The notes beneath the pieces were generated by a model. That model did not search any database and was not told the origin of the DNA. It saw only the letters and a list, made by a program, of their open reading frames with translations. This document shows, piece by piece, positions 2,993-35,053 of a DNA stretch of 64,000 nucleotides (the stretch's first letter is position 1; each line of letters starts with the position of its first letter). This DNA is from a bacterium (GTDB lineage: Bacteria; Patescibacteriota; Minisyncoccia; Phycocordibacterales; UBA6899): the NCBI GenBank assembly GCA_043756865.1, contig JAYUQG010000014.1, forward strand, positions 2,349 through 66,348, written 5' to 3'. The translations under genes were made by a program, and so were the position numbers.

Positions 2993-3074
2993 ATAATTAG
3001 GATACTGCAATTGTAACATGCACCACAAAATAAGATGCAAAAGAAGGATGTGGACGAGAAGTGGATATCCGCTC

Positions 3075-3215
3075 GGGATTATTCAAGCTGAAAGGCACAC
3101 GGTCGGCGCCTTCCGGCGAGCGCCGCCGTCACACTCGGGCAATTGCCCCATAAGAATGGGGACCAAGCCAATTGTCCTGCGTGAGACCTTTCAGCTTAAA
3201 TAATCCCTCGCTCCC
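3075..3215 (+). repeat. R1 structured repetitive element, copy 1 (candidate ncRNA or MITE-like element)
   Basis: core TGAAAGGCACACGGTCGG-hairpin-CCGCCGTCACACTCGG-hairpin-GACCAAGCCAATTGTCCTGCGTGAG-CCTTTCA closed by 11-bp inverted repeat AAGCTGAAAGG/CCTTTCAGCTT; two more copies at 10471..10608 and 31775..31880 whose internal hairpins have different sequences but preserved pairing. Confidence 0.55.
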
Positions 3216-3413
3216 GAGGTGAGAGTTAGCAATGTGTGGAGTCCCAAAACTTCATCATTCTCCTCGCTCCAAAGAAAAGAGCAAACAACTGTGCTGCGTG
3301 AGTGCTTTCATTTTGAACAGTCCTTCGCTCCAGAGGTGGGAGTTAACATTGTCGTCTGGAGTTCCAAAACTAGAACATTCTCCTCACTAAAAAGTACAGT
3401 GCTGGTGGCTGTG
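3167..3413 (+). repeat. imperfect tandem direct repeat (2 units of about 117-130 bp) duplicating the 3' tail of R1 copy 1
   Basis: unit a 3167..3283 and unit b 3284..3413 both start CTGCGTGAG.CCTTTCA....TCC.TCGCTCC.GAGGTG.GAGTTA..A.TGT...GGAGT.CCAAAACT..A.CATTCTCCTC.CT.AAAAG. Confidence 0.5.
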
Positions 3414-3429
3414 CTTTGTGTATTCTACT

Positions 3430-3562
3430 AAAAAACTTTCATAATTTTGATGGATTTCAGTTTTTTCGCGTCGGGAGTGTTTGAGAAGGTGTATGAGTTA
3501 TACATCATCCAAACCTTTCGACGATGAAAAAACTGAAAGGCGCAAAATTTGAAAGTTTTTTA
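3430..3562 (+). repeat. R2 structured element, copy 1 (nested inverted repeats), just past the stop of gene 3560..5467
   Basis: outer stem AAAAACTTTC (3431-3440) with GAAAGTTTTT (3551-3560); inner stem TTCAGTTTTTT (3456-3466) with AAAAAACTGAA (3527-3537); conserved GTGTATGAG, CCAAACCTTTC and ATTTTGATG blocks shared with copy 2 at 35054..35160. Confidence 0.5.
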
Positions 3563-5467
3563 CCAGTTGGCGCGCTCGCCGACAATACCTATAAGCGTAT
3601 TTTGACCTAAATAGTCACCAGAAAGTGTAATCGCTATGGGAACCGCGATGCCCCAATGTGTCGTACTTGATGCTTGCACACTAACGGAAGTTGATTTTGG
3701 AACGTTAAGCTCGATTTCGGCTCCTGGATTCGCAAGGAGTACCGTCGCTACTCCGTAGGCAAGTGTAGACGAGGCATATCTTTGGTTGGCGATAAAAATG
3801 GTTGAAGTTGCATTTCCAGAGCACGCTGCTGGGTAACCCGGACACATATTTACACCGTATAAAGTTTCATCCATTCCCACATTTCCCGCCGCGCGCAGTC
3901 CTGTTTGGTTTTGAGCTGTGTTTCCCACAGTGACTGTATCTTGCCCTGGTTGCAAACCTCCATAAGCGATAGTGGTAGTAGACACGGTGTATGCGAGAAA
4001 ACTTGTGAGCTCAGTACCTGATGTACTTTCAACGAGTGAGCTTGATGACGCATTGTCGTCGAATGCCCGAGCAGAGGCTAACCAGTTTTCTGCAAAATTC
4101 GGAGGATCTGTTGTGGGGACACCGTTACCATCCGTTGCTTCTGAAATATACCAAAGCGGAAATGTACAATCCCAAATGACATCTGAGTCTGTAGAACCGA
4201 GGCATGAAGTTGAACTTGCAACACAGTTCATGCTGTGCGTGGCAACAGTAGTCGTTGCAGGGCCAGGGTAACAATTGTTGGCATTATACTCCCCTGCTAT
4301 GTCGCAACCTGCCTGCGTTATTCCTGAGCGGTAAGTATTTGTGAACCCTGAAATAATCTCGCTTCCCGCAGCAAGATTCTGGCAACTATTCTGATCAGTG
4401 ACGGTGTATCGAACAGAAAATCCTTGCGTCTGAGTTGCAATGCCAGTAAGTGTGAGTGGTCCAGTCTGATCAGTATCAAGAAGTGAAATTGAAGCTGCAG
4501 CGATAGTTGGGGTCACATTGCTTACAAAAATCGAGGAATCCGCCCCCTGCGATCCCCCCGATGCCGCATGTGAACCGTGTTGGTCAATAATAAATCCAAA
4601 TGCCGTGTATGTTCCATCACGATAGGGAATCGCAAGCAATGTTGAAGTGGAAGGATTAGCTGCACTAAACGTGGATGTAGCCCACACTCCCCCTGGTCCG
4701 CAATTTGTGCCGGTAAAATCATTTGCACGGCAGACAAATAGTCTCACATCGTCTTGGTCAGCACCGATGTCCCCTGCGTATGTGTCAGTATCGGAGGAAG
4801 TTGCATAGAATATCACGGTACCACCCGGGTTTGTGGGGGAATTATCCATAAAAAAGGTAAATGTCGGGCGGTGGTTCACCACAAAAGGAGAACGCTCCCC
4901 CTCAGCACCGGGAGTGGTGGAACCTTGTCGAAATGCGGCATTGCAGGAGGCTCCGGGGCTTGTGCCGTCGCAAACCCAACCAAACCACGCATTAAACTCT
5001 GCGTTGAATTGCGAACCGATGCCTTCTGTTGTTGTGGTTGCAGCAGAAGCTCGAGCACCATTGGTGGTGGTTGCGGAAACCGCCCATTGGTTTGTATCGC
5101 CACCGTTACAATCGGGACGTCCGAGTGGACGTGGCGTGGGCAAGCCGCTTGTTTTGCAAATAAGTAGAAAGTAATTGTCGTTTGAAGAGTCGTTTGCTGA
5201 TCCTAGCCAAGTGATGACGCTTCCTGTATTTGTTGGTGTGGTTGTGGATGAAGGCGTGCTTTCATGTGCATCTTCAGCCCATTGCGGCGGAGTATTCAAT
5301 ACGGTAACTGAAGTAGTGGCTGAATCAGCCAATGCCACGTTCCCGCGGGGAATGTCCGCAACGAGCCCAAAACAAATAACAAATACGCCAAGTAGCGTTG
5401 TCGCGATACTGATTTTTCCCGTGATTGTGCTGTATCTTTCCCTCAACATATAGAAACTTAAGACCAT
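3560..5467 (-). CDS. large secreted Thr/Ser-rich hypothetical surface protein with N-terminal signal anchor
   Basis: 635-aa ORF; hydrophobic N-terminus ISIATTLLGVFVICFGLVA; many Cys pairs; no recognisable catalytic motif. Confidence 0.5.
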   Translation of the reverse strand: MVLSFYMLRERYSTITGKISIATTLLGVFVICFGLVADIPRGNVALADSATTSVTVLNTPPQWAEDAHESTPSSTTTPTNTGSVITWLGSANDSSNDNYFLLICKTSGLPTPRPLGRPDCNGGDTNQWAVSATTTNGARASAATTTTEGIGSQFNAEFNAWFGWVCDGTSPGASCNAAFRQGSTTPGAEGERSPFVVNHRPTFTFFMDNSPTNPGGTVIFYATSSDTDTYAGDIGADQDDVRLFVCRANDFTGTNCGPGGVWATSTFSAANPSTSTLLAIPYRDGTYTAFGFIIDQHGSHAASGGSQGADSSIFVSNVTPTIAAASISLLDTDQTGPLTLTGIATQTQGFSVRYTVTDQNSCQNLAAGSEIISGFTNTYRSGITQAGCDIAGEYNANNCYPGPATTTVATHSMNCVASSTSCLGSTDSDVIWDCTFPLWYISEATDGNGVPTTDPPNFAENWLASARAFDDNASSSSLVESTSGTELTSFLAYTVSTTTIAYGGLQPGQDTVTVGNTAQNQTGLRAAGNVGMDETLYGVNMCPGYPAACSGNATSTIFIANQRYASSTLAYGVATVLLANPGAEIELNVPKSTSVSVQASSTTHWGIAVPIAITLSGDYLGQNTLIGIVGERANW

Positions 5468-5614
5468 TATACATGAGCAATCCGCAAAAAAGGCAATAAG
5501 TTATACACAGTTTCAGAAAAAGATGGCAGAAATTTAGCCGAACCAGAAGAACAAAAAAAATATTGTCAGATTTTCTGTATTTTTCCTACTCCCTACTACT
5601 CCACTATCTTGCCA

Positions 5615-6823: not shown

Positions 6824-6831
6824 ATGATTCT

Positions 6832-6837
6832 ATTATA
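6832..6837 (-). promoter_or_regulatory. -10 TATAAT box 8 nt upstream of the permease start codon (leaderless or short-leader promoter)
   Basis: minus-strand reading CGCTTCTCTTCTATAATAGAATCAT-ATG; same TTCTCTTCTATA(TA)ATAGAG motif precedes the ABC ATPase gene. Confidence 0.4.
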
Positions 6838-6952
6838 GAAGAGAAGCGAGAACTCACCAAGTTCTCTCCGCACGCTGTGTACCCAAAATTGACACGACGC
6901 GAGAATGACTTACTCTTGAAAAAGACTTCTTTTCTTTGAATAGGATACCCCC

Positions 6953-8251
6953 ATGTCCCTCGACATTTATGTAAAACGCCGCGCACGGCTTGCCAAAAAA
7001 TTGGGTACAGGTGCGGTTGCAATTATTCCCAGTGGACGAATGGTGCAGAGGAACGGTGACGTGCATTACCCATTTCGCCCCGATAGCGACTTCTTCTACC
7101 TTACAGGTTTCTCGGAACCAAATGCGCTCATTGTCCTTACGGGCGGTAAAGCAACATGCTCTGTGTTGTTCTGTGCACCGAAGGATCCAGAGAAGGAGTT
7201 GTGGGAGGGAGAGCGCATTGGCCCGAGAAAGGCGAAGCGTAACTTTGCATTTACTGCAGCCTACCCTGCCACATACGACGAAGATATGTGGCAACGCATT
7301 CGCGTATTCACAAACCCCGCAGTGAAAAAAGGCTTGCTTTCTTTTGCCGCGGGAGCACAGTCTCTCCTTCCTGAAGTAGTTGACCCCTCCGCAAAGAGCG
7401 CTACTGACCTGGCTGCATGCATTGGTGAAATGCGTCTTATCAAGTCTGCAAATGAGATTGCCACAATGCAGAAGGCGGCGAGTATTTCTGCGCGCGCACA
7501 CAAGGCGATACTTTTCATTGCGAAACCGCATATGCGCGAGTATGAACTTGAGGCCGAGCTCGCCTATCGTTTTCGCATCGCGGGCGGAGACCCACTCCAT
7601 GCCTACCCCCCGATTGTTGCGTCAGGAAAAAATGCATGCACGCTCCACTACACCAAAAATGACGCACTCCTTCGGAGTGGAGACCTCGTTCTCATTGATG
7701 CGGGTTGTGAGTATGAGGGATATGCCTCTGACATCACAAGGACGTTCCCCGCCAACGGCAAATTCACCAAAGCCCAGCGGACTCTATATGACATGGTGCT
7801 TCGTGCGCAGCTTGCTGCAATCAAAAAAGTGAAACCTGGCGTGCCACTCCATGAAGTGCACACCGCTGCAGCACTGGTCATTGCAGCAGGATTGTTGGAA
7901 CTTGGTTGGGTATATGCTGACGACGCATGGGAAGTTATTGCACGCAATCTTCATCGCCCCTACTTTCCGCATGGTACGAGCCACTGGCTAGGAAGTGACG
8001 TACATGACTCAGGCAATTACGAGCGGAGCGAAGATACGCGCAAGGCTATGCGGGTGCTTGAACCAGGAATGGTCATTACCGTGGAACCGGGACTCTATGT
8101 ACGCCCACAGAAAGGGATTCCGAGGGCATTCTGGAACATTGGTATCCGCATTGAAGATGATGTTCTTGTTACCAAGGACGGAAACACGGTACTCTCAAAG
8201 GAGGCGCCGAAAGATCCGGACGAAATTGAAAACATCATGGCTGCCAAGTAG
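6953..8251 (+). CDS. pepP: Xaa-Pro aminopeptidase (M24B family)
   Basis: 432 aa; HGTSHWLGSDVHD metal-binding motif, EPGMVITVEPGLY and IRIEDDVLVT pita-bread fold motifs. Confidence 0.7.
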   Translation: MSLDIYVKRRARLAKKLGTGAVAIIPSGRMVQRNGDVHYPFRPDSDFFYLTGFSEPNALIVLTGGKATCSVLFCAPKDPEKELWEGERIGPRKAKRNFAFTAAYPATYDEDMWQRIRVFTNPAVKKGLLSFAAGAQSLLPEVVDPSAKSATDLAACIGEMRLIKSANEIATMQKAASISARAHKAILFIAKPHMREYELEAELAYRFRIAGGDPLHAYPPIVASGKNACTLHYTKNDALLRSGDLVLIDAGCEYEGYASDITRTFPANGKFTKAQRTLYDMVLRAQLAAIKKVKPGVPLHEVHTAAALVIAAGLLELGWVYADDAWEVIARNLHRPYFPHGTSHWLGSDVHDSGNYERSEDTRKAMRVLEPGMVITVEPGLYVRPQKGIPRAFWNIGIRIEDDVLVTKDGNTVLSKEAPKDPDEIENIMAAK

Positions 8252-8260
8252 CCCACAAAC

Positions 8261-8287
8261 AACCGACCCACATAGGTCGGTTTTTTA
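8261..8287 (+). terminator. rho-independent terminator after pepP
   Basis: AACCGACC-CACATA-GGTCGGTT followed by TTTTTT. Confidence 0.55.
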
Positions 8288-8370
8288 TTAACTACAGACA
8301 CCAGACAAAGACAAAGACAAAGAATTTTACCCTTAATTTCGTTTTCTACAACTCTTAAACTTTGCCACAG

Positions 8371-8502
8371 TAGCAGTCGCAAAATTTTGGATGGAATGCG
8401 AGGCGACAAGGGTATGATGTTTGAGCGGACGTACTCCTCGTACGTTCGCCAAACTCATGCCCGCAGTCAACAAAGCAGTCCGCCAAAATTTTGCGACTGC
8501 TA
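8371..8502. repeat. perfect 20-bp inverted repeat pair flanking a 92-bp spacer
   Basis: TAGCAGTCGCAAAATTTTGG at 8371-8390 and its exact reverse complement CCAAAATTTTGCGACTGCTA at 8483-8502; the right arm overlaps the stop codon of the ABC ATPase gene; the spacer carries its own imperfect hairpin GGACGTAC-TCCTC-GTACGTTC. Confidence 0.5.
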
Positions 8503-9828
8503 GTGGTGGGCTTCGCCGGTGCGTGGAATACCCAATGCAATCAACTTCTCAATCAACCTTGTCACATCAAACGACTGTTTCTTGTTTAACCCCACTCCCC
8601 CTTCTTTCGTGGAAAGTTCAATTTGTGCCGAAAATTCATCACGTTTTGTAAATCCGCCAATACGTTGCGCGATGAAGTCTTCAAAGTGTTGTTTTTCGGA
8701 AGGTGCGAGCGAAAGAGAGAACTGATCTGAAACAAATTCAGCAATACGGTTTATAAATTCCATGTCGCGGATCTGTGTCCCTATTGCATTCTTGCGTCGA
8801 CGAAAACGCTGAATATCGAGGGAATGCTCGACAACAGACATCAATTTTGAAGACATTTCTGATGCGCGTGCCACAGGAAGTCCGACTCCTCCGCTTTCAA
8901 AATCTGCCATGAGTATGCGCAGGTATGCTGAGCCATCCATACGTCCGGAAATAACTGCCTCAGTTACTTTTTGTAAGCGCATAATTTGATCAAAGGTCAA
9001 TTCCTCGATGAGGTAATTGACGATGCTCTTCACCTGCAGTTCGTTTGGTGAGTCATAGGGATAAATACGGGCAATCTGCTCAATCTCGGTGACTATTGTC
9101 GTACCGGGTGCAAGCTTGAGAATTTGTTTCTTTTCAGGGTTTGGCACAATACGCTCAATCTTTCCGTCTGCCATATACACAATGCGGTGAGCATATGGGA
9201 GGTACTTTGCATCGTGTGTCACAAGAATAACCGTCTTTTTATCTTTATCGTTTATCTCTGCAAGTGTATTCATAACCTGTGCCGCAGTGATGGAGTCAAG
9301 GTTTCCGACCGGCTCATCAGCAATCAAGATCTGTGGATCATTCACCAAGGAGCGTGCGACAGAAACGCGCTGCTGCTGTCCACCCGAGAGCAGTGTCGGA
9401 CGTTTGTTTGCAACGTGGTCAATCATAAAACGGCGACACAATTCCATGCCACGCTCATAACGCTCATTGGGAGCAACTCCGTCAAAAATAAGCGGAAGCG
9501 CAACATTGTCCAAGACCGTAATAGATGGAATAAGGTTAAACGACTGGTACATGATACCCATCGTCTTACGTTGAAAGTGCACCATCTGCATTGGCGTAAA
9601 GTCATAGATACTTTCACCATTCACGTACATCTTCCCCGCCGAAGGCTCCAGCACTCCGAACATACAATAGAGCAGGGTCGACTTTCCGCAACCAGATGGA
9701 CCGAAAAGAATGATGTATTCTTGGTCAAAAATCTCGACGGTAGCACCCTTATTTGCCTTGAATTCATTCTCCTTTCCAAGGTTATAGGTAATTTCAATCT
9801 GGTCTCCAAAAATAATCGGTTTTGCCAT
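8500..9828 (-). CDS. ABC transporter ATP-binding protein (MacB-type ATPase) with roughly 200-aa C-terminal extension
   Basis: Walker A GPSGCGKST, signature LSGGQQQRV, Walker B LIADEP; ATG at 9826-9828 (MAKPIIFGDQ) is preferred over the ORF-track start at 9858 because the conserved TATAAT motif sits between them. Confidence 0.6.
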   Translation of the reverse strand: MAKPIIFGDQIEITYNLGKENEFKANKGATVEIFDQEYIILFGPSGCGKSTLLYCMFGVLEPSAGKMYVNGESIYDFTPMQMVHFQRKTMGIMYQSFNLIPSITVLDNVALPLIFDGVAPNERYERGMELCRRFMIDHVANKRPTLLSGGQQQRVSVARSLVNDPQILIADEPVGNLDSITAAQVMNTLAEINDKDKKTVILVTHDAKYLPYAHRIVYMADGKIERIVPNPEKKQILKLAPGTTIVTEIEQIARIYPYDSPNELQVKSIVNYLIEELTFDQIMRLQKVTEAVISGRMDGSAYLRILMADFESGGVGLPVARASEMSSKLMSVVEHSLDIQRFRRRKNAIGTQIRDMEFINRIAEFVSDQFSLSLAPSEKQHFEDFIAQRIGGFTKRDEFSAQIELSTKEGGVGLNKKQSFDVTRLIEKLIALGIPRTGEAHH

Positions 9829-9838
9829 GGCTCCCTCT

Positions 9839-9844
9839 ATTATA
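9839..9844 (-). promoter_or_regulatory. -10 TATAAT box 10 nt upstream of the ABC ATPase start codon
   Basis: minus-strand reading GATTCTCTTCTATATAATAGAGGGAGCC-ATG. Confidence 0.4.
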
Positions 9845-9917
9845 TAGAAGAGAATCAAAACCTCCCATGGGGAAACCCACTTTTCATAAGTGCGCTACAG
9901 AATTAATGCACTTTGAT

Positions 9918-10376: not shown

Positions 10377-10470
10377 GCCGCATGATAGTCACCGATTACC
10401 TATCAAAGTTTCTAACGAACCACATGAAACAATACTAAGCTATAGTCTCCCACACACTCAAACGCCGACG

Positions 10471-10608
10471 CTCCTGAGCGAGGGATTCTTCTGTTTGAAA
10501 GGACTCACGCAGGACAATTGGCTTGGTCTCCATTCTGATGGAGCAATTGGCCGAGTGTGACGGCGGACTCCGCAGGAGAGTCCGACCGTGTGCCTTTCAC
10601 ACAGAAAA
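10471..10608 (-). repeat. R1 structured repetitive element, copy 2, on the sense strand directly after the stop of the FN3 gene
   Basis: minus-strand reading TGAAAGGCACACGGTCGG-ACTCTCCTGCGGAGT-CCGCCGTCACACTCGG-CCAATTGCTCCATCAGAATGGAGACCAAGCCAATTGTCCTGCGTGAGTCCTTTCA; closing stem CTGTGTGAAAGG/CCTTTCAAACAG. Confidence 0.55.
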
Positions 10609-10621
10609 ACCCCGAGCGGCC

Positions 10622-12121
10622 CTATTTTCCGATGTTCTTAACCCAGCCAAACTGCCCCTCAAAGTTCTCCAAAATAATATCAATAATTGACTTCTCTTTG
10701 TTCGGTGTAAATAACACAAAGTTTTCCGACTTCGTCTTGTTCTTTGCATCATCGCGGCACTCTACCCAGAACTGATATACAGTGGAAGGCAGAAACTCTA
10801 CAACGACCTGCACATGAGATGTGCGTGGCTCTTTTTCCTCGCCAAGCCCCGTCGCTTCAGTTGCAGGATTCAATCCTTCGCGGAAGTAGAACTGGCAATA
10901 CGACTCCTCATCGGTTCCCCATGACACGATAGTTTGCACTTTCGCATCAGCGGAGGGATACAACGTAGACTCGTTCGACACTTTAGAAATTATTGGGGGA
11001 GCAATGTCTTTTATGGTTGTGAAGAAAAGCTGATTCGAAGTGACCTTCTCCCCCACCGCATTTTCTGCTTTCACCACCGCACTATAACGCACACCGAGTG
11101 ACAGTCCCGCAATTTTGACCTGCTGTGACGACGAGAAAATCGGCGAACCAGCAGACTTTATCTCTCTGGTCTTAATATTGGTGTACTCGACAACACCTGA
11201 TGCAGGAATATTTGTACGCCACGTAAGCGTTGCGGAATCTTCTTCGACTTTCGCAACACGAAAATTGGTGATAGTCGGGAGCGCAGCCTTCGTGGTGAAT
11301 GCACTGTCGCGGGACACTCCCGTGAGTTGCAACTCACCCTCAGACGCAACTTGAAAATGGTAGGTCGTACCTGCAATAAGTCCTGTGACGCGCACTTCGT
11401 GATCTTTGATGCGCTCTCCCTCATCTCCCGACTCGGTAGTGTAGGGATCCTCTGCGTCGGGGTTGTATTCTGATTCACGCACATAACGCACCACCGAACT
11501 TGCGTCGAGGTCGGTCGCCCAGCTAATCACGGCATAGTCGCTTCCTACCTCTTTCACTCTCGGACTACCTATGATGCGCGGAGCCTCCAGAATTTTTTGT
11601 GCAACTTCACCAAGTTCTGCCGCAACCATACGTACACCCTCGGGAGTCTTCAGTTCTCTAATTGATGCAATCGCGCGCTCAATAACCATACGCTCTTCTG
11701 GGGGAATATCTTCAATATCTTTAATATTCATCACCGCCTTTGTCGCTAGCACGTAGTCGCCAGAAAGTGCCTGATTCCCACCATAATCCTGTGAGCCAAT
11801 ACGGATATGATAAAAAACGGAAGGCTCAAGATCATCCAGAAGGACGCGATGCTTTTTCTTGTTTGGAAGTGGGTCTCTCGCCACACCGTAATCTTTGGTG
11901 AGACCGAAATTCACCTCTGAATCTGCTTCTTCGTCAGTTTCCCATGTGATTAATGCGGAAGTGGCGGTGGGAGAAACAATCTGAATATTTGAGAGTTTTG
12001 GCGGAATCCCGTCTCCTGACACCTGCGCAAAGAGTGAGTGCGGACCGAAAAGTCCGTACCCAAAGAGGCCTCCCACGATTGTGAGGAGTAAAAATGACCC
12101 CAATGTGCGCATGCGCGACAT
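10622..12121 (-). CDS. secreted protein with four fibronectin type III-like repeats
   Basis: ATG at 12119-12121 (MSRMRTLGSFLLLTIVGG signal peptide); repeated ...TDEEADS..., ...YHFQV/YHIRI FN3-like units; promoter motif TCTCTATATAATAGAGAGAGT directly before the ATG. Confidence 0.55.
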   Translation of the reverse strand: MSRMRTLGSFLLLTIVGGLFGYGLFGPHSLFAQVSGDGIPPKLSNIQIVSPTATSALITWETDEEADSEVNFGLTKDYGVARDPLPNKKKHRVLLDDLEPSVFYHIRIGSQDYGGNQALSGDYVLATKAVMNIKDIEDIPPEERMVIERAIASIRELKTPEGVRMVAAELGEVAQKILEAPRIIGSPRVKEVGSDYAVISWATDLDASSVVRYVRESEYNPDAEDPYTTESGDEGERIKDHEVRVTGLIAGTTYHFQVASEGELQLTGVSRDSAFTTKAALPTITNFRVAKVEEDSATLTWRTNIPASGVVEYTNIKTREIKSAGSPIFSSSQQVKIAGLSLGVRYSAVVKAENAVGEKVTSNQLFFTTIKDIAPPIISKVSNESTLYPSADAKVQTIVSWGTDEESYCQFYFREGLNPATEATGLGEEKEPRTSHVQVVVEFLPSTVYQFWVECRDDAKNKTKSENFVLFTPNKEKSIIDIILENFEGQFGWVKNIGK

Positions 12122-12130
12122 ACTCTCTCT

Positions 12131-12136
12131 ATTATA
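12131..12136 (-). promoter_or_regulatory. -10 TATAAT inside the palindrome CTCTCTATATAATAGAGAGAG, 9 nt before the FN3 gene start
   Basis: minus-strand reading TCTCTATATAATAGAGAGAGT-ATG; the palindrome CTCTCTATA/TATAGAGAG could also be an operator. Confidence 0.4.
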
Positions 12137-12171
12137 TAGAGAGACCTCGTTCACGAAAAGGCACAACCCTC

Positions 12172-15100
12172 TTAATTCGCAATAAAGTAGTTAGTCCCCG
12201 AGTGTGTGGTTGCAGCCGTACCGTTTGGAACTCCAAGCCCCCAATACACGTCTTTAAAGAACGGGTTTGTCGACGTAGGCTTCGTCACGCCGATATTATA
12301 CGGATTACTCGTAGTTGCGAGGAGGTTACAACCCGCACATCCCGAATAGGTGAAGGTTGAAGTGGCATACTTCTGTTGGTTGACGGCAATTGTCGAAGAG
12401 GCTGCGGTCATCGGAGACCCTGACAACAAGAGATTCAAGATTGTATTTCCCGTGTTTGTCACTGTCGTTGTCGAATTTGCCGCACCCGTATCTGCGCCTA
12501 CGGTAATTGAGCCGTAGTTCAGGCTTGAAGGAATGGTCAGCCCCTTAAGTGTGTACACATCCTGTGATGAGGATGCTCGTGCATGCGAGTTCGACGTATC
12601 CCATACGTCGATGAGCGCCTGCCAGTTTTCCGCTACGAATGTACTTCCAAAGTCAGTTGGGTCTGCAAAGTAATACATATCCGCGGTGCATGAAACCGTA
12701 CAGGAGTTCCCTGAACAGTTAATAAAGCTACATGAACTGGTGCTGATTTGATAACAGTTATTGTTGTCGGCGGTGCAGGCTGTCGAAGAAGATAGTCCCG
12801 AACGGAAAAACGTTGAGGATGCAAAAGAGAGGTCTGCATAACCGTTGTAATCAGTAACAGTTGAAGTCGCAAAAATCGTCGTTGTGGCACCTTCCGTCAG
12901 TGCAATGCTTGCGTTGTTGTTGAATGAGAAATTAGAAAGGACTGGTGCATGCAAAATGCGCAACTCAGCAACCTTGGTGTAATTATCAAGTGCACTACCT
13001 GAATTGGTGGTACGGAAACAGTAGGCATCCTGTGACGCAAATGCCGTCATCTGGAAGTTATATTCCACTTCAGTAAATTCACCTGATGCAAGCGACACAT
13101 TGCCCGTTTGATTTGACGGGTCCTCAAGTATTTGGCCGTAAGTAAACGTTTGCCCCGTCGGGATAGACAGTAATTGTGTTGTCGAAGACTTGTCACTGAA
13201 CTGTGTAGATGTTTTCATACATGCAGCACCTGAGCCACAACCCGCTCCGGAAGTCGTGGGTACGTCAACATAGCTTCCCCCAGATACTGATTCACAATTC
13301 GGTGAAACCGACTTCGGTGCAACCTGTAGTCTGAAGTTATTATTGTTAATTGGTGCGCCCGAATTTCGCACGGTCACGCGGAGGCGGAGATTTTCGTTAA
13401 TGAGCTGATTTGCCAGTGTTGTATTTTCAGCTGTCTTCCATGTTGCACCAGAGTCCGCCTGTTCTAACCCAAATACTGCGCCCGGTGCCGTGGCAATGTA
13501 CTCTCGAGCAGACGGGATATCCCAGCCTCCATGCTGACCCCAATATGCAAATCCTATCCCACCTGACGTATATGAGGAATCTGTGGCAGATGTTGTGGCA
13601 AATACGCTACCTGCTGAGTCGTACACGGTCACATTAATTTGATTGTTCGAGAGCCAGTTGATCGATGCCTCATACCACCCTGTCGCGTATGTGACACTGG
13701 TTGTTGCAAGTTGCGTCGCTCCGTCATTGCGACCATTATTTGCCGCATTCTTTGCTATGACGACTTTATCTGTCCCCGAAAATGGGGTGAGGCACACAGC
13801 ATAATTTTGATGCAAAGTTATGGGAGATTGGATAGCGAAAAGAAAACACGGCTCATTGGATCCACCGGCTGCAATATCAATATACTGAAAGAACCTAATC
13901 GTAGTATCGCGCCCCACTCCAGCAGACATCTGCCCGATACCGTCGGTGGTCTTTCCTGAAGCCTCATTACCCAGAGAGGCATCAATGCCACGTGTACGCT
14001 CGTAATTAAAGGCTGTAGATTGCTCAAAAAGAGTAGTGTTTCCAGAATATTCTGACATACTTCCATCCTCGAAATCGTCAAAGAATTTGAACGTACTGGT
14101 GCCGCTGGTTCCTCCGGCTACCGTCGCATGGCCGTAGTACATAAAGATATCTGCCATACCGGAAGCAGGAAGTGCCGGTACTTTCACCCATACGGTTGAT
14201 GATGCTGCTGCAGTAAGGCTCTCTATCCAATACGGAATAGATGTCGTTCCGGACGAGTCCGTGAATCGTAAATCATCGAAGTCACTTTGCATATCAGAAT
14301 CGTAGACAACATTAAATTTCACCTCGATGTTTACCTCAGACGAGGTTGCGTTGTTGTTGATTCGCACGCGCTTACGCTTTGACCAATTTTGGTCATACCA
14401 TTCAGTCGAAGGAACACCCTCTGCTCCGTTGTCATTTCGCCATCGGTAAGTCCGCTGATCAGAGAACAGACATGAACTATCGGTCCATCGGATAGACCCA
14501 CATCCATCATTTCCGTCGTTATCACGGGACTCAAGCGCCATATTGCCGTATTCACTTGCAAAAGTGATGGCATTTGTTGTCGTACCGATACGCGAAACAT
14601 TTGCTCCTTCTATTGCTGTGGTTGTGGCAAATCGTACGTAGAATATTTGACCTGACGCATTTTGGTCTATGGTGGTTGACGCGATGGTGATCATGCTGCC
14701 ACCCGATAGTCCGAGCTCAAAGTCCCCGTTTGAGAGTGAGGTGATGGTCGTCGTGCCACTCATATCAAGTCCCGCGGTATTCATGTTTCGGAACTGATAG
14801 TACTGCGCATTGATGTATGAGGAGCTGAGTGAAAGCCCATAGTTACCTGTCGTCGCACGATCAACTGTTGTAGACGCCGTACTAATACCTAACATCTGGA
14901 GCGTTGATGCATTTGAGAATGCTGCAGCCGCAGAAGGACCAAACCGCACATTCACCTGACGCGAACTACCGCCGAGTGCGGTGCCGTCGAAATCGGTGGC
15001 GTAGCTCCAATAGTCGGTACCCGTTGTGCGCGTGTATGCTCCATAAATGTGGAGAGTACCATCCACCGCTGCATGGTCTTGTGCATACACCGAAGTACCC

Positions 15101-18100
15101 GTGCCAAGCTCGTATGCAGCTGCAGAAGAATTCCAGTTGCGCACTATCGTGTTTGTACCAAGACGGATTATGCCATAGAGGTCTCCACCTGCTGTTTTGC
15201 TGTTCATGTTCAAACTGGTGCCTGAGTTGAGTGCGAGTCGGGAACCACTCCACGTAGTGGAGGCACCACCCAGATTGTTGGTAAATATTCCTCCGACTGC
15301 AAGTGCAGAAGAAGATGCTTGGATGAAGTTTCCGCTTGCAATAGTCATACTTCCTGTTGTTGTCGCAGATGCAGAAATATTCACAGTCGCAGCAGGAGCT
15401 CCTGCGACATACACTCCCGTAAGCGTTGAATTTCCTAGTGCCACAAGCGACGTTCCTGAGGTAGGGTTGAATGTTACAAGCGACGTCGTGGCTACGGCAA
15501 TGGTACCCGTCGCGATAAATGACCCACCAACGGTAAATGCTGCATTGGGGAGCGTTGAAGTTCCTGATGCAAAAATGACGTCGCCGGTAGCTGTGGCATT
15601 CGTATCAGTAAATGTAAACGTTCCTACGTCTGCGATAAAGAGATTGGCAAGACTCGAGCCATTCATGCGTATGATTCTTCCCGACGATGTGGCAGTCATA
15701 CGAATAGTTCCTCCATTTGCTGTCACTCCCCCACTTTGATTGTTGAGGTCTGTTCCGATTGCGAGTACGCCCGTCGGTAGTGTCGTGGTGCCGTTTTTCA
15801 AAAGTACTGCCCCTGTTGCGGTTGCATTTGTATCGAGGAAGGACCACCCGCCTCCGACTCCATCGAATTCAAGGTTCGCAAACGCAGAGGTAAGAGCGCG
15901 GATATTTTTCCCCGTTGCGGTAGACGTAAATTTCACCACGCCGGAATTGTGCAAGAATACACCGCCAGAGTTATCAAAAGTCCCGCCCACGGCAAGCGTG
16001 CCCGATGGGAGTGTTGTGGTTCCCGCAGAGAAAGTAAGGTTATTCGAGGTAGTTCCGACACCACCAATATTCCATGTACCACCACTGCCGCTCATGGTCA
16101 TGTTGTAAAACGTGAGTGAAGATGATGCCGAAACAAACTTGCCTGTTGTCGATGCGTTAAAGAAAAATGTTGAATTCGCAGGTGCAACCGAAGCCCCGCT
16201 CGCTGCGTAGAAAGAGCCGGCCAGTGTGTGCGTCTGTGTACCCGCCGCACTCCACGTCGAACTTGCGTACAGTTTCACCGTACCATCACGATCACTGCCC
16301 AGTGCATTACCATGTACGGTTACATCCCCTGCAGGTGCAAAGACTTTGCTGGTCCAAACAATCAGTGTGGTGTTCGATGGAAGCACAAGCGTATCTGGTG
16401 CTCCGGTGGTTGCCTTGAAACGAATATCGGTGTCTTGGTCGGAATCGTATTGATTCATGTTTGCAATCGAAAGTGCTGTTCCTCCTTCGTGGCGCACAAT
16501 AACTCGATCGCGATAGAGATGCATGTTTGCGATATTTGTTGCGGGGTCAACCGTGACGTTTGCCGCGGTAGTTGAACTGTTGGTGTCGAGATAAAGTGTC
16601 AGCACATCCCCTGGGTTAAAGACGACACTCGAGATTGAAAAAGCTCCCGTCGTGGAATTACAAGCCGATGTATATGCTCCAGCACCCTGTACTCGCAGTC
16701 GTACCGTTTGGGTCGACCCATCACAGGTTGGACCACCAACAGGAGTAATTCCCTCATCACCATAAACGTTACCTGAAATGGTAATATTCGCGGCTGAGTC
16801 GTCCCACACAATGTAACCGGGATCACCCCCTGGGTCAGAGTCAAACGCTTCGCCCGCAAGCACACCGAGTGAGGTCGGAGTCCCCGCAAAACGCCAAATT
16901 GATGCTGAGACTCCGGTGGCCTTAACGTTAAACCCTGAGCCCACACCTGTTGAAGTCCCAAAATAATTACGACTGAATATCTTAAGGGGATTTGCATCAA
17001 TTGTCGCACCCGCAACGGTAATCATACTTCCAGCCGCAACCCCAAGTTCGAAGTCTACGTCATCCATGAGATTCACAACTGGTGTTCCCGAAAAATTGAG
17101 TCCATTTCCGTCCACCCCACGGAAGCGTACGTACTTCATAGTTGTCGAACCACCAGAAATATTGAGTGCGTAGGTACCGAGCGTTTGTATGCTAAGGCTT
17201 GTCGATGCAGTATTTGTCCCGAGTATTTCAAGAGCACCGGTACCGGAAATAGAGATACTTGAGGCAGTGGCAAAGCGCACATTTGCCTGACGCGAGCTAA
17301 CGCCAAGTGCGGTGCCGTCGAAATCAGTGGCGTAACTCCAATAGTCAGTGCCTGCGGTACGCGCGTACGACCCCCAAATATACAGTTCGCCTGAAGTACT
17401 CGCATGATTCTGTGAATACAGACTCCCCGTAGCTGCGACGGCGGTCGTTGTTGCCGACGAGGCCCACATGCTTATCTTTGTACTTCCCCCCACTTGGAGT
17501 GTTTCATAGCGGTCACCCCCAAGAGCCTTCGTGTTCATTGCTGAAGTGACTCCAGAGTTCAAGTAGAGAGTCGAGCCTGTCCACGTCGTTGCACTTCCGC
17601 CTACAGCGTTGGTAAATACACCGCGCACTTCAAGTGTTGTGCCCGATGCCATGACAAACGATGATACCTGTGTGATGGAGAAGTTATTCGTAGTGGTTGC
17701 ATTTCCGAGTATCGTCCATCCGCCGATTGCAGCATTAAATGCTGCATTGTAAAACGCTGATGTACTCGGTGTAATTGTGCGTCCAGTGGTAGTTGCGACA
17801 AAAGAAACGGTTCCTGCGGACGGGGTATATGTTCCCTGATTGTACCAGTCACGATAAATATTAAAGGCGGCGCTATCAGACCCAACCAATGTTGCACTGC
17901 TCCTAATAATGAGGTCACCTTCGACATTCACTATGGGGTCATTTGTGGTAACGGTGGTCGTTCCACTATTTACTCCATCCCCCACCGTTAGGCTATTTCG
18001 CACGGTAAATGTTCCTGCCGAAAGCGAATATGTCGGACCACCCGCTCCACTTGGCGCAAGATAGAGACGATAATAATTTGCCGCAGCAACCGTCGTATTT

Positions 18101-21100
18101 GCAGTCGAGCTAAATCGAAAAACGGAAACCTCAGGATTCAGTGTTCCCGTAATCACCAAGGGAGTGGCGCCTCCTGTCAAATTCCACGCAGAGGGAACAC
18201 CTGCGTTAAGTGTATGCCCAGCAGTGACCGTCATTATGGTGGCTATAGAGATTGTCGAAGAACCGGTCTTCGTCGTTGTGCCACCCGCACCATTTCCAAA
18301 ATTGAGGTTATTGAAACTCCAGTTCGTGTTCCCCCCAAAAGTGCCTCCATTTGCAAATGTGACACTACCACCCGTCATAGCGACTGTACCAGCTCCCGTC
18401 ATATTGACGCCAGAGATAGTCATCGAATTTGCACCAACGAGTGTTCCCTGTGTGACCGTCAAATCATTTCCCGTGTTTGTCGTTTGGTTTACTGACCACT
18501 CCCCGCCACTTCCATTAAACACGAGATTCCAGAAATTAATCGGCGTAATACCCACGAGCAACTTCCCTGTTGTGGTGGCAGTAAAGGTGAATGTCGAAGA
18601 TGCAGCCGTAAAGGTTGCTCCTGCATCAAGGGCGAACCGCCCACCTACCGAGTGTGATTCATTTCCCTGTGCAGTAAATATGGCATTGTTGTCGACGTGG
18701 AATGTACCGTCCCAGTTGTTTCCCGAACCACCGGAGTTCAGTGTGATATTGCCATTTGGAATAAAGGTTTTTGCATTCCAGACCCAAAATTCTGTTTCTG
18801 GATTCACTGCAAGCGTGTTGGGTCCCGTTGTTGCGGCAGAGTATGAAATATCACTGTCATTGCCCGCGTCATATGCATTCATGTGCTCAATCCCAAGTGC
18901 AGCGGTATCTTCGTGTCGGACAATCACGCGGTCTTGATAAAGATTAATGCCGGTTAAGTCCGCAGATGCAGACCTCGTAACCAACGTTGCTTTTCGCCCA
19001 CCGTTTGTATCGAGGTAAACGGTCATCACCGTATCTCCAATAAACGTCACCCCCGGTACCGTATAGGTACCGTTAGCTGACGAGCATGGTGCTGCAAAGT
19101 TGCCGAGCCCGTTCACTCTGACGCGCACATTTGGTGTCACGTTATCACATGTTGTTGTGGACATCGGGGTTACGCCGGCGTCGCTATAAACCGTTCCTGA
19201 AATGGAGATGACAAAAATACTGTCGTCCCATCTTATGTATCCGGGGTTACCGCCAGGATCATTGTCATTGGACTCTCCTGCAATATTTCCATAATGCTGC
19301 CTAAAACGGATGAATGATGATCCCGCCGGAGTTCCGATTTCTGTAACGTTAAATGCCAAAATCGCTGTGGTTGTTGCAAACCGCACGGTGAACAGTTGAA
19401 TTCCGGTGTTCTGGTCGACGGTCGTCGACGCAATGGTGATTCCACTACCGCCATTCGTAGCAACTTCAAAATCTCCATAAGACAGTGAGGTGACGGTTGT
19501 TGTACCCGCAAGCTCAAGTCCGCGCGCACCCATGTTTCTAAACTGATAATAATTCGCATTCAAGGTTGCGTCTGAAAGTGCAACGACAAAACTTCCCGTT
19601 GTTGCGCGGTCTATGGTGGTTGAAGCGGTCGTGGATCCGATTATTTGGAGAGTTGCATTTGTGGTAAAGCTGGAAGTTGCGGTGGGTGCAAAGCGTACAT
19701 TTACCTGTCTTCCACTCCCCCCAAGTGCAGTGCCGTCAAAATCTGTCGCAAAACTCCAGTAGTCTGTTCCCGTTGTGCGAATATAGTTCCCACCAATAAA
19801 GAGCGAGCCATCTAATGCACTATCATCTTGGGAATACATCGACGACGTAGGGGTGAACTGGTACGTATTGCTCGAAGAATTCCACATGCGTACATTTGTC
19901 CCCAGAGCGAGACGCAGTGTCGCATAGCTATCGGCGCCTGTTGTTTTTGTATTCAGTGTGTAGCTCGTGCCCGAATACAGTGTGAGTGTAGTGCCGGTCC
20001 ACGTCGTCGAAGCACCACCGACATTATTGGTGAACGTACCTCCAACTGCAAGTGCAGTTGCCGTGGCCTGCGTGAAACCACCGGAAATAAGTGTAAATGC
20101 CGCCGTTGCCGTGGCGTTCCCGGTAATGCTTATGGTTGCAGTTGGCGTCGCGAGCACATTCACCGTTGCAAATGTTGAAGGTCCCGCAGAAACAGTTTTT
20201 GTTCCTGAAGCAGGGTTAAAATGTACCGCTCCGGACCCGGAAACAAATGCTCCAGTGGCTGAGAAGTTTCCTCCAATCGCAAAATTCGCCGTGGGTAATG
20301 TTGTGGTGCCCGCGGCAAATATTACATCACCTGTGGCGGTCGCGTTTGCGTCGGCAATTGTAAATCCGCCTGCGTTCGCGACAAAAAAGTTTGCAAGTGT
20401 TGAGCCGGAGAGGCGCACGATGCGGCCGGAAAGCACCGAGGTCATGCGCAGTGTTCCTCCGTTTGCAACGAATGCTCCTGATTGATTATCAAAGGTATTT
20501 CCCGCTTCGAGTGTTCCACTTGGCAATGTGGGTGTACCTGCAGTGATATAAAATGTTCCCACCGTGGTTGCATTTGTATCTTGGAATGTCCAAGCACCTC
20601 CAGCGCCAGCAAATAATATGTCATTCCACAACGAACCGTTCGCGCGCACATTTTTGCCCGATGCGGTGGAGGTGAAGCGTACAACACCGGAATTGTGGAC
20701 GAACGCCCCTGCTGTGTTTGAGAATGATCCCCCTATCGCCAGAGTTCCTGAGGGTAACGTAGTAGTTCCTACACCTGTAATTGCGAAATCATTGGTTGTG
20801 GTTGCATTGGTGTTCTGCCAAATCCATGTCCCTCCTACGCCACTAAAGGTCGTGTTGTAAAAATTCGATACACCTTGGTTTATTGTTTTGCCGGTTGTTG
20901 TTGCAGCAAAATCAACGGTACCCGTAAGTGAGGTAAAGGTTCCCGTGTTGTTCCAATTTTCCAGCACCGTCAATGTGTATGCGCTGCCGGCAGAAAGTGT
21001 GTCATCTGCTCCTATTACAATGTTTGTGGCCTTCACCGAGGATCCGAGTGTGAGCGTTTTTGCGGTACCATTGACCACCACATTCCCGAGGTCCTGCTTT

Positions 21101-24100
21101 GCGGCGGTATTGTCTGTCCATATTCTCGCAGCGGTGCCGGAAAATGTAGTTGTTGCAGTGCCCTTGATAAAGGTGCCTGACGCACCAATAGTGAGGTCCC
21201 CCTGCAGTGTGATGTCATTTGTGCCTTGTGAGGTCGTCCCAAAACTCATCGCAACAGTACCTGTGGCCACAAAGGCAGAACTCAGATTCCACGTCGCGGT
21301 GTTACCTGATTCTCCGAATGTAACATTATAAAATGTTGAGGTTGCTGCGCCCGTCGAGTCAATAGTGCGTGTTGAACTGGTGCCGTTAAAAATTACGGTT
21401 GAGGCATTTGAAGTAAAGCCGCCTAGGTTTCCCCATGAACCACTCACCTTGATGGTATTCGTATCTGCAAACAAAAATCCATTCACCCGCATATCCCACG
21501 TATTGATGGTCTCGGATGTTGAAGTTGCGGGTCTGAATGTGTTTGAAAACACGTGAATACTTGAATCGAGACAGGAGCCCACGACGCAATTATTAAAGTC
21601 ATTTCCTGCGTCGATATCGTAGAAAATATCTTCACTCCCTGAAACTGAATTATCATATTTCGCAAGATCGGTGAGGCTGATGGACTGACCTGTAGTAGAG
21701 GCAGAACCGATTGTGACCCAACGTTCACTGATTCGCATTCCTCCCATATCACCGGGGCCTGTATACTTCGCAACCGTAACAGCCTCATTAAAATCGTTTG
21801 CACCACTGATAAACACGGTCAGTGTGTTGCCGGGAAATACGGTGACATTGTCTATAAACCAGTCTCCGTTTGCAATCGTGCCGGTTCTCCCCACTTGGAG
21901 TGAGCCGTTAACTGCAACTGCCACTGTTCCCGAGGTGACAGTTGAGGTGAGATCATGCAGGCGCGCAGTTCCCGATATGCGAACCCCAGCCGCCCACTCA
22001 ACCGTCCAATCGTTAAGGGTCGGGCAAACCCCAGACATACAGGTCAGTGTCCCCTTTAAGCGTATGACATTGTAAAGAGTGGTATCCAGCGCAGTAATAC
22101 TGATAGGCGAAGTAGTAGTTCCTACAGAATTTCCAGGAATCAACGTGTCTGGAATTAGGGCCCACGTTCCCGATGCGTTTTGATATTGCACCTGTGTCAT
22201 AAAAGTGGTTTCCCCTGGTGTGGTTGCGTCCCACTTCACACGTTGCCACGCAGGTGCAATACCATCATCGTAGTCGATTGGTGTTCCAATAATGGTACCA
22301 ACGGACAAAGGACTTTGTGGAGCCATATAGAACGGTTCTCCGAAGGGACTCGCGGTGACCGAAGCAGTATCTTCGATTGTTTGGTGGTTCTCCCACGTGG
22401 AGGAGCCTACAAGCTCAGCATATTCATAATCAGTGCCCACATGGTCAAAAAACATCCCGAGCATAGTTCCAGAGGCAGAAGTGCGCACGAGCTGATTAGT
22501 GAATGAAGTGGGAAAGGTTGTTCCTCCCGTTGAAGCCATGTTGCGCTCCCCTTGATAAAGCACTCCATCCCAAAAACGCCATCGTGTTCCTGTCGTATCT
22601 GCATAGGGAACCATGATGTAGTTGGTGCGGCCACTTATGGTTTCGTACTGGCAATCAACAGGTCGACCATTGAAAGATTGTCCCGTGATCTCCAATTCGG
22701 TAAATGCTGCCCACGTATTAGTGGATCCCGTCCATCGTATAACGCCAATATCATTGTCCTGGTCGATATAACAAAGAGCCATATCGTCATTGGTCTTATT
22801 TCTCCGAAGGTTTCCACTTTCAAAATCGTCGCCGAGCGCAACCGTCGCGGTTGCCGTCCACGATGCACCATTCCAACTTTTCCATACAAAACTCGCATTT
22901 ATTCCATTGGATGCCACAACGACTGCATCGGTTCCCGAGTTCTCATACTCCACTGCCATGCCCTCATGCGCGATGTCTCGCATCGAGCCGAGCACCGTCG
23001 CATTTCCCCATGATGATGTGGTGGCATTCCACACCTGTGCCTCGTACATAGAACCGGTGTTGCGGAACAATCCGATGATTTCATTTGAAATGGGGTGAGA
23101 TGCCAGACGTACCCATTCACAATTTGTTGCGAAAGAAAGATTGACCGTGCCGGTTGCTGACCAGGCGCTCCCCGTCCAAATACGATATCCTGCCGTGGGG
23201 GAACTGTCACAAGTAACGGCAATCGCTCTTCCTGACACGGTTTCGTAGGCGACATCAAAACTCCTGCGTTGGGGCGACGGTGCAGCAGTCCCCGTTTCTT
23301 GAAGATTCGCCCATGCGCCACTTTCATATACTTGAAAGTTTGTGTCGCGGTCTGACCCAAGCGTACCCAGAATATATTGCGAGATAAGGGGAGAAGACTT
23401 CACGATTACCCACTGAATAGTAGCGCCAACAGAAAGCGCTGTTTGCTCACCCCCCAGTGTGATTCCATCAAAAATACGGAACCGTGGAGTTTGCACGGTG
23501 CCTTCACCGTAGGCCAGCATGACTTCATCCGTCGTGGTAGCAACGGTGGTTGAACCTGTACCCGTCAGGCGAAGTGAGGAGAGTGTGTCAGTCCTGAACT
23601 GGTCGTCCACGGTCTGAAACCACGTCGCAATAGTGATGGAAAGATCCACGGTGAAACTTCGTGTTTCCGAATAGAATGAATACGTATTCGCGCCAGTAGG
23701 ATCACGTCCGCGCACGCGCCAGAAGTACGTGCTCGAAGCAATAAGCGCATCTCCGGGCTGAATCGTGAAACGAATACGATCGCTTGAATTAAATGGTGTG
23801 GTGTCGGTGGCATTCTGAATATTTTGGAATCCAAGATTTACTCCGGAATTGCGTGTCGTGGATGAAGTAAACGCAGATGTGGTTGACCACTGGATTTCAT
23901 ACTCAATCGGGTCGCCCTGAGGGTCAGCGGCAGTCCATTCAAATGTAGGCGTCGTTGTATTTAGCTTGGCATTACTAAATGGTAAGTACAATGTCGGAGT
24001 TCCCACAGTAAAGCCCCAATCAATTGTCCAATCAAATAATACTGGTGTCCCCGTCGTATTCGTGAGATTCGCGCGTATGCGTATCGTCGCATACACCGTT

Positions 24101-31774: not shown

Positions 31775-31880
31775 GAGGGTCTGACGCATGGCAATCGGCT
31801 TGGTCACCGTTCTGACGATGCTATCATTCGAGTGCGACAACTGCGCCCGTAGGGGGCGCCGATTGTGTGTCTTTCAAAAG
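31775..31880 (-). repeat. R1 structured repetitive element, copy 3 (diverged), on the sense strand after the stop of the cohesin gene 31885..33372
   Basis: minus-strand reading TTGAAAGACACACAATCGG-CGCCCCCTACGGGCG-CAGTTGTCGCACTCGA-...CATCGTCAGAACGGTGACCAAGCCGATTGCCATGCGTCAG; both hairpins keep pairing with different sequence. Confidence 0.5.
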
Positions 31881-33372: not shown

Positions 33373-33379
33373 GGAGAAA

Positions 33380-34971: not shown

Positions 34972-35053
34972 AGTAAAAGTCGTTTATAATTATATACAAA
35001 AAGACTACTCCCATTCTAGTAAATGACAAGCAACGTGGAAAATATACACGCAT

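Follow-up and report, generated by a model that had tools for sequence, protein, structure and literature searches.

R2, a stop codon-associated hairpin repeat of Parcubacteria with possible affinities to sites handled as folded single-stranded DNA

Several classes of small hairpin element are known from bacterial intergenic regions. The ERIC/IRU and Correia (NEMIS) sequences are TA-duplicating miniature inverted-repeat elements of enterobacteria and Neisseria, and REP/REPIN sequences are recognised as folded single-stranded DNA by RAYT (Y1 HUH) transposases, with G.T mismatches tolerated in the stem. Within mRNA, the hairpins of REP, ERIC and Correia elements act as exonuclease blocks, processing sites or termination/attenuation sites. 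The genomes of CPR bacteria (Patescibacteria) are tiny and densely packed and, to our knowledge, almost nothing is known about their non-coding DNA and mobile elements. The subject of this analysis, which we call R2, is a strongly covarying element of about 133 nt, outside Rfam, that lies at the 3' ends of housekeeping genes. Rfam 15 at gathering scores gave no match anywhere in the window (the whole 64,000-nt stretch of DNA that was analysed), and at an E-value threshold returned for R2 only generic long-hairpin plant miRNA precursor models, at 36 bits versus gathering scores of 90-330. Literature searches revealed no account of such an element in CPR bacteria. Judged by their neighbouring proteins, the host organisms are Parcubacteria/Paceibacterota, and R2 is a previously undescribed lineage-specific repeat family of this part of the CPR.

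The window derives from a metagenome assembly (Logan SRR23617209) and contains three copies of R2. The original prediction had described two of them, both of which proved to be genuine and whose limits are here refined to 3429-3562 (copy 1) and 35053-35180 (copy 2); it overlooked a third at 8371-8502 (copy 3). That the element is itself oriented on the plus strand, directly 3' of minus-strand genes, was borne out. The blocks said to be common to copies 1 and 2 occur far above chance: with up to three mismatches ATTTTGATGNNNTTCAGTTTTT has two matches in the window against 0.05 expected, and TCCAAACCTTTC has two against 0.31, in each case the two copies themselves, which share 76% column identity when aligned with their flanks. 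The stem TTCAGTTTTT/AAAAACTGAA and the central hairpins do exist, but as parts of one continuous hairpin and not as the nested repeats that had been proposed.

Copy 1 is a complete element on the plus strand (129.5 bits with the covariance model described below; inverted repeat I5), the plus strand of which folds at -63.5 kcal/mol (z = -10). In this fold the arms of the outer stem occupy 3429-3448 and 3544-3562 and are followed inwards by an asymmetric internal loop, GATGGAT (3449-3455) opposite AGGCGC (3538-3543), and by a long inner stem and an apical hairpin at approximately 3489-3507. The outer stem AAAAACTTTC/GAAAGTTTTT, as already described, covers the stop TTA at 3560-3562, which in the ORF list is the minus-strand TAA of a 635-amino acid gene (3560-5467) and lies within the 3' arm. 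This gene, upstream of copy 1, specifies a conserved Parcubacteria protein for which 646 homologues were found (top non-self match, 65% identity) and in which no Pfam domains were detected. A conserved AACTGTGTATAACT followed by TGTATAAT is present upstream of it at 5468-5614 in the window, as well as at 7201-7289 in locus L087 and 7061-7190 in L089; this pair probably represents the promoter plus operator of the gene.

Copy 3 (plus strand, 79.4 bits) is divergent and richer in G+C (50%), and possesses a perfect 20-bp outer stem, TAGCAGTCGCAAAATTTTGG/CCAAAATTTTGCGACTGCTA. Its final three bases are the stop CTA (= TAG) of the upstream ABC transporter ATPase gene (8500-9858, minus strand; Pfam ABC_tran, E = 1e-28), and its fold energies are -84.9 for the plus strand versus -70.5 for the minus strand. 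Downstream of this copy is an opposite-strand ORF of 432 amino acids with its own terminator at 8261-8290. Copy 2 (plus strand, 88.7 bits) retains an intact core and its plus strand folds at -42 kcal/mol (z = -6.9). By the limits of the covariance model its 3' end, at 35180, reaches one base into the stop codon (35180-35182) of the upstream gene for a dockerin-bearing protein (35180-36946, minus strand; Pfam Dockerin_1), the product of which ends in NWTG. The 5' outer arm of copy 2 (TAAAAACTTTTACGATTTTG) is that of the AAAAC subfamily and cannot pair with the copy's own 3' arm, and copy 2 is therefore chimeric or damaged. Comparison with L076a and L028 revealed that it is orthologous to L076a, yet bears a 5' outer arm of another subfamily; the mismatched arm indicates a breakpoint inside the element.

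The original prediction had proposed a wider covariance-model search, and this, together with pattern searches, yielded 22 copies outside the window besides the third within it. The resulting 25 copies thus comprise three from the window and 22 from a Candidatus Lloydbacteria MAG, metagenomes and window-syntenic loci. Species-representative genomes scanned with the 3' blocks of R2 gave 14 pattern matches, one of which was genuine (L015, Lloydbacteria), while a metagenome scan with the apical blocks added approximately 18 copies. Eighteen copies were aligned to build the covariance model (named R1, and distinct from the R1 repeat family discussed below), which located five more in window-syntenic loci retrieved through homologues of the 635-amino acid protein. 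A sixth syntenic copy, of the copy-3 type, lies directly after the ABC ATPase gene in L087 and was overlooked by the model. Among viral contigs there were three pattern matches, none genuine. An A+T-rich subfamily, which we call young, comprises copy 1, L015, L024, L027, L050, L072a, L080 and L087; its members are mostly 75-93% identical, with a few pairs at 64-72%, and are scattered over differing loci and genomes. In a G+C-rich subfamily (copy 3, L076b, L033b, L090a, L090b and L086b) the stems have been replaced wholesale, with compensation.

Every copy of R2 is predicted to form a single hairpin of about 133 nt with 51 pairs. The outer stem, of 12-20 bp, differs in nearly every copy while its complementarity is kept (for example AAAACTTTCA, GCAGTCGCAA, CAGTTTCTTG, GGCCAACGAT and CTAGTCCTTA), and more than ten unrelated outer-stem sequences occur among the 25 copies. 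Inward from it come the conserved stem AAUUUGG/CCAAAUU, an asymmetric internal loop that is likewise conserved (GG-A-UGC-AA-UUC opposite GAA-GG-GCG-CC), about 20 bp of further stem, a bulged U and a bulged A spaced five pairs apart (GGAAG-U-GUUUG-A-GAAG opposite CUUC-CAAAC-CUUUC), and a short apical hairpin with a variable loop. In a model-based alignment of 19 copies, standard pairs fill 95.8% of cells and both sides have changed at 40 of the 51 pairs. Sliding the partners by one to three columns lowers pairing to 39-52%, and none of 500 shuffles attained any of the observed pairing values. Apical conservation is inflated, since the metagenome pattern demanded exact apical blocks; in the copies found by the model alone these blocks vary too, with compensation. 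The core is 75-93% conserved between genomes in which the flanking intergenic DNA cannot be aligned. With hypervariable ends and a conserved centre, recognition is expected to proceed via the folded core, and the hypervariability of the outer stems rules out sequence-specific terminal repeats.

It is hardly credible that the copies resemble one another by chance, or that R2 is a functionless palindrome kept symmetric by template switching (quasipalindrome correction). Template switching would change both arms together in the absence of selection, and could explain outer stems that are perfect yet wholly changing. Against this reading, the asymmetric bulges and loops have been conserved and not corrected away, the wobble pairs show a strand bias of 7 to 1, the core is conserved across genomes, and the 25 copies attain covariance-model scores of up to 138 bits. 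Five further candidates were rejected. A small ORF within R2 (ATG-CAA-TTC...) does not keep its frame between copies. A variable or template repeat of a diversity-generating retroelement (DGR) disagrees with copy differences that are compensatory and not adenine-specific, and no reverse transcriptase lies nearby. An invertible promoter is at odds with a segment that is palindromic throughout. Likeness to a XerCD/dif-like duplex in the folded stem is limited to one outer-stem subfamily, and the AA/GG layout of the internal loop misfits the tandem sheared G.A pairs of a kink-turn.

The two strands of R2 are not equivalent. The predicted pairs of the plus strand include 64 G.U or U.G cells versus nine A.C or C.A cells, which is the 7 to 1 bias mentioned above, and the plus strand is the more stable in 24 of 24 copies. 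Mean energies for the plus and minus strands are -68.6 versus -52.8 kcal/mol with RNA parameters and -38.9 versus -33.0 with DNA parameters. Because the plus strand is so clearly favoured, the fold cannot be called strand-symmetric. The earlier argument that symmetric stems would retain the fold in the transcript stands to the extent that the mRNA-sense strand still folds, but it does so on average 16 kcal/mol more weakly. Deamination of the non-transcribed or leading strand enriches G and T on the gene-sense strand, and the GC skew of the window's plus strand is negative. A mutational origin of the G.U bias was rejected, as the biases expected from deamination and skew run in the opposite direction; since the bias opposes mutation pressure, we infer that it reflects selection. 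Wobble pairs and energies together place this selection on the strand that is not mRNA, and asymmetric bulges mark one strand of R2. The structurally selected strand is not the one evidently transcribed, and this is the chief oddity of the family.

For 21 of the 25 copies, counting from the R2 3' end, a stop codon is found at -13 to 0, within the outer stem or at its base, and belongs to a long ORF of the opposite strand; L078, L045/L061 and L033b do not conform, nor does the second member of the L087 tandem. All 21 anchored stops are TAA or TAG; TGA, with a 16% share of the stops of these loci, is absent from them (P ~0.01-0.03). TA is mirrored at the 5' boundary in approximately 13 of 25 copies, a picture that a TA target duplication and, TA being self-complementary, an extension of the stem would produce alike. 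A fixed cleavage distance from the core was rejected, the stop codon lying 12-18 nt from the GCGC block. The better-folding strand of R2 is the template (antisense) strand of the adjacent stop-anchored gene.

The genes next to R2 encode an ABC ATPase, FtsX, ribonucleotide reductase, PilM, a multicopper oxidase, an AI-2E transporter, HSP20, and fn3 and dockerin proteins, and the wider neighbourhoods consist of housekeeping genes. As the adjacent genes are unrelated to one another, the association with surface-protein genes is accidental; Pfam scans of the neighbours do not uphold the tie to such genes made in the original prediction. No transposase, recombinase or reverse transcriptase was seen beside any copy in the fetched loci (up to 20 kb), and no transposase figures among the 25 families listed of the 75 Pfam families matched by 81 neighbouring proteins. 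In L015 (5421-5648) the Lloydbacteria copy is followed by a gene whose beginning encodes an InsA/IS1-like zinc-ribbon (a weak Pfam match, E = 8.5e-4); this is the sole transposase-like neighbour of R2 seen, and the locus ends within the gene. In L045 (2931-2949) and L061 (1925-1943) a 20-nt duplicate of the R2 3' arm (GCCGATTATGAAAGTTTTTT) lies directly 5' of the 5' arm, as if a neighbouring copy had been deleted and had left it behind. The L045/L061 copy is also among the few that are oriented like their flanking genes.

With regard to transcription, the 70 nt upstream on the plus strand lack any -10-like hexamer in 16 of 24 copies, and those hexamers that exist are not clustered in position. 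No conserved promoter motif was found 5' of R2 on the plus strand, and a consensus scan found no promoter upstream of the three window copies. TGnTATAAT promoters are used elsewhere in R2-bearing genomes, one being conserved upstream of the 635-amino acid gene. Small conventional terminators lie between R2 and the next gene in L072a, L072b, L045 and L033a, and others just 5' of several copies; at copy 2 a promoter-like site of the next gene comes directly after the element. Since R2 follows the stop codon and precedes whichever promoter or terminator comes next, it must be transcribed in the mRNA sense, as part of the 3' UTR of the upstream gene, and a dedicated plus-strand transcript is unlikely. 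In L030 (770-813) the conserved TTGCAT of R2, the reverse complement of GGATGCAA, precedes by 18 nt a perfect TATAAT situated just beyond the element, and this hexamer in turn ends 14 nt before the MetRS start codon. The pair may constitute a hybrid outward promoter; its spacing is not repeated at most other R2 copies.

These observations bear on whether R2 is a family of plus-strand sRNAs, convergent with the upstream gene and acting in trans (e.g. by protein titration) or by blocking antisense transcription. The covariation does resemble that of an RNA, since G-C, G-U and A-U pairs replace one another on the plus strand, the bulges and internal loops are conserved, and so is the core, at 75-93%, amid flanks that defy alignment; a plus-strand gene upstream of copy 3 could moreover read through into it. 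We nevertheless consider an sRNA family rather unlikely. There is neither a conserved promoter nor a -10 box upstream, and an internal promoter cannot serve, since the paired 5' outer arm must be within the transcript. Small terminators stand immediately 5' of several copies, the next gene starts only 20-40 nt from R2 in L030 and L076b, about half of the copies are missing a 3' U-tract, and presence or absence at orthologous sites would be unusual for an sRNA gene.

A host cis-acting element of the 3' UTR or intercistronic RNA, which blocks 3'-5' exonucleases, serves as an RNase III processing site, or terminates or attenuates transcription, seems to us somewhat unlikely, though it has several points in its favour. 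R2 invariably comes after the stop codon but ahead of the next promoter or terminator, and hence in the mRNA; its mRNA-sense strand folds at about -53 kcal/mol on average; a copy-3 type has been retained at one site in three genomes; the site that holds R2 in L024 and L090 holds R1 in the window, as though either could serve as the 3' module; and AAAAC-type copies carry A and T runs. On the other hand, every copy has its wobble pairs and energies tilted towards the strand that is not mRNA, whereas selection on the mRNA would reverse this pattern, and many orthologous genes have no R2 while some copies decay. Termination in particular is poorly matched. The suggestion that R2 might be a bidirectional terminator was not upheld, as A/T runs flank the element only in the AAAAC/GTTTT subfamily, where the T runs form part of the stem; most copies are without a U-tract, and the terminator scan flagged none of the three window copies.

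Comparison of related genomes reveals a feature absent from the original prediction, namely gain and loss of R2. Filled and empty sites were compared among genomes whose closest relatives are 59-65% identical in the neighbouring protein. The 58-nt spacer at 701-758, between the genes at 759-1940 and 2-700, is an empty site, and in L027 and L086 the orthologous position after the first gene (dockerin gene X) carries a copy, of a different subfamily in each. Likewise, the 7-nt spacer between the HSP20 and cohesin genes (33373-33379) is empty in the window and filled in L076. R2 follows FtsX in L015 only. After the fn3 gene, L024 and L090 have R2 and the window has an unrelated R1 element. The site after the 635-amino acid gene is occupied by copy 1 in the window and by a copy only 59% identical to it in L086, where 24 nt of a copy-1-like element survive as well; in L090 the R2 of this site has decayed, and in L087 and L089 the site is without R2. 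Related copies follow the ABC ATPase gene in the window (copy 3), L087 and L090, the old copy of L087 standing in tandem with a second, young one. Near-identical elements (92-93%, outer stem included) are found beside unrelated genes in two cases, L028 (PilM) with L076a (dockerin) and L024 (fn3) with L027 (dockerin). Against the nearest genomes, which are only about 60-85% identical in protein, no clean target-site duplication emerged. The ABC ATPase-FtsX interval (window 6824-8499; L087 3835-5866; L089 2877-5680; L090 6469-8355) differs in gene content from genome to genome.

R1 is a second, unrelated structured repeat family of about 133-150 nt, with the core GAAAGGCACACGGTCGG ... CCAATTGTCCTGCGTGAG.CCTTTC, and it likewise has no match in Rfam. 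Copies lie in the window at 3067-3218 (plus), 10460-10640 (minus) and 31776-31878 (minus), with a partial one at 3266-3335 (plus), and in L050 at 4792-4936. A 21-bp outer stem surrounds two hairpins, and of the two strands the one antisense to the upstream gene again gives the more stable structure, by a small margin. Two copies come directly after stop codons (genes 10622-12166 and 31885-33372), one of them at the site where L024 and L090 carry R2. The window also encodes a giant ORF of 6246 amino acids and a paralogue of 1790 (12172-30912 and 44827-50199), alongside cohesin-, dockerin-bearing and collagen-repeat proteins (31885-33372, 759-1940 and 35180-36946). As predicted from their sequences, these constitute a cohesin-dockerin surface system of a CPR bacterium.

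Being gained, lost, tandemly duplicated and recombined, R2 shows the behaviour of a small non-autonomous mobile element. Our preferred reading, which we hold tentatively, is that of a mobile hairpin repeat, specific to one strand and defined by its structure, which resembles REPIN, ERIC and attC sequences in kind and is passive in 3' UTRs. Orthologous gene pairs with and without R2 point to mobility, as do tandem, remnant and decayed copies, exchanges of subfamily or with R1, copies 92-93% identical beside unrelated genes, and the breakpoint inside copy 2; the lack of a promoter and the small terminators just 5' of several copies favour it over a plus-strand RNA. Such an element would be small, non-autonomous, mobile or recombining, and defined by structure and not by terminal sequence. 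When the plus strand became single-stranded DNA it would fold into the R2 hairpin; a trans-acting, structure-specific enzyme would recognise the hairpin via its conserved core, and would copy, move or recombine it. Thereafter the RNA of the upstream gene would carry R2 passively, as a weaker hairpin, in its 3' UTR or between cistrons.

Several points weigh against a mobile repeat. In the fetched loci of up to 20 kb no transposase, recombinase or reverse transcriptase gene was seen to accompany any copy, the neighbours being housekeeping genes, and the TA mirrored at the 5' boundary, besides its restriction to about half of the copies, would also be a product of stem extension. If genes run with replication, the plus strand is the leading-strand template, which is the least often single-stranded. 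The copy-3 type is kept at one site in three genomes with its unpaired sequence conserved, which suggests a function at the level of the host. A mobile repeat does not by itself explain the turnover of outer stems with kept complementarity, and G.U-rich covariation is a classic signature of RNA and not of DNA. A more far-reaching proposal, and in our estimation an unlikely one, is that the R2 and R1 families are both substrates of a new structure-specific ssDNA recombination or transposition system of the CPR, in which a folded template-strand hairpin would be read via its asymmetric core and the TA of stop codons would be targeted, in the manner of attC sites without an integron. In a related alternative, the strand complementary to the mRNA would be functional by virtue of its production as cDNA from the 3' UTR.

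If the single-stranded DNA reading is true, a new structure-specific recombination or transposition activity is reshaping gene ends in the CPR; if the plus strand is transcribed, R2 is a new class of multi-copy non-coding RNA from an uncultivated phylum. Either way, the covariance model can be used to annotate a recurrent feature of Paceibacterota genomes and to flag sites of rearrangement.

How, then, does R2 compare with described elements? Three types could be set aside. An intrinsic terminator is a short G+C-rich hairpin with a U-tract, and separate small terminators of this kind follow several R2 copies. IS200/IS605 ends or PATEs consist of separate LE and RE hairpins and R2 of one self-pairing hairpin. 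Retron msr/msd is also discounted, R2 being one hairpin only and its neighbours diverse housekeeping genes. Like the REP/BIME mRNA stabilisers of E. coli and intrinsic terminators, R2 is a hairpin just after the coding region, in the 3' UTR, but it is 5-10 times longer, usually has no U-tract, and has its fold optimised on the strand that is not mRNA.

The ERIC and Correia elements resemble R2 in being multi-copy, intergenic, TA-associated sequences of 100-170 bp that form one long imperfect hairpin, are often co-transcribed at gene 3' ends or in operons, and show presence/absence polymorphism. As expected of such elements, R2 displays insertion polymorphism and near-identical copies at unrelated loci. 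However, in ERIC and Correia elements the terminal inverted repeats are conserved and either orientation is found, while in R2 the termini are hypervariable and the centre is conserved; no conserved terminal inverted repeats were found among the 25 copies. R2 further differs in its fixed orientation to the upstream gene, its strand-specific fold and its abutment on the stop codon. With the REP/REPIN-RAYT system it shares the properties of non-autonomous extragenic hairpin repeats that persist for long periods and are vertically inherited. Unlike REPINs, R2 has no GTAG/CGTC head, does not consist of two short REP palindromes, and is conserved centrally and not terminally. GTAG occurs in copy 3 and L072b only, where it contains the TAG stop codon, and no RAYT gene was seen near R2 in loci of up to 20 kb.

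Integron attC sites resemble R2 in being imperfect palindromes that are defined by structure, reach about 140 nt at most, and overlap the ORF stop or come directly after it; their functional strand is the template (bottom) strand, marked by extrahelical bases and an unpaired spacer. R2, too, lies directly 3' of an ORF and folds on the strand complementary to it. One might therefore ask whether R2 consists of integron-type attC sites, with the folded bottom strand as substrate of an IntI integrase. In agreement with this, a 133-nt imperfect palindrome starts at the upstream ORF stop with the template strand folding, conserved extrahelical bases and an unpaired central region are present, structure is kept more than terminal sequence, 11 of 19 copies have AAC...GTT at 12 nt outside GATG, and just after several copies the gene content varies. 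Actual membership is nevertheless very improbable and has largely been refuted. The unit of gain and loss is the element alone and not a gene plus site. The R and L box consensus (RYYYAAC/GTTRRRY) is wanting, and eight of the 19 copies are without even AAC/GTT, among them copy 3, L015, L050, L078, L072b, L030 and L033a. The fetched loci and the Pfam listing contained no integrase, attI or cassette array, and the bulges lie on the 5' arm of the folded strand. A conserved centre with variable ends is, moreover, the reverse of attC. By analogy with these systems, R2 may behave as do those sites that are handled as folded single-stranded DNA, namely integron attC, REP/RAYT and the ends of IS200/IS605, which we tentatively take as the likeliest mechanism.
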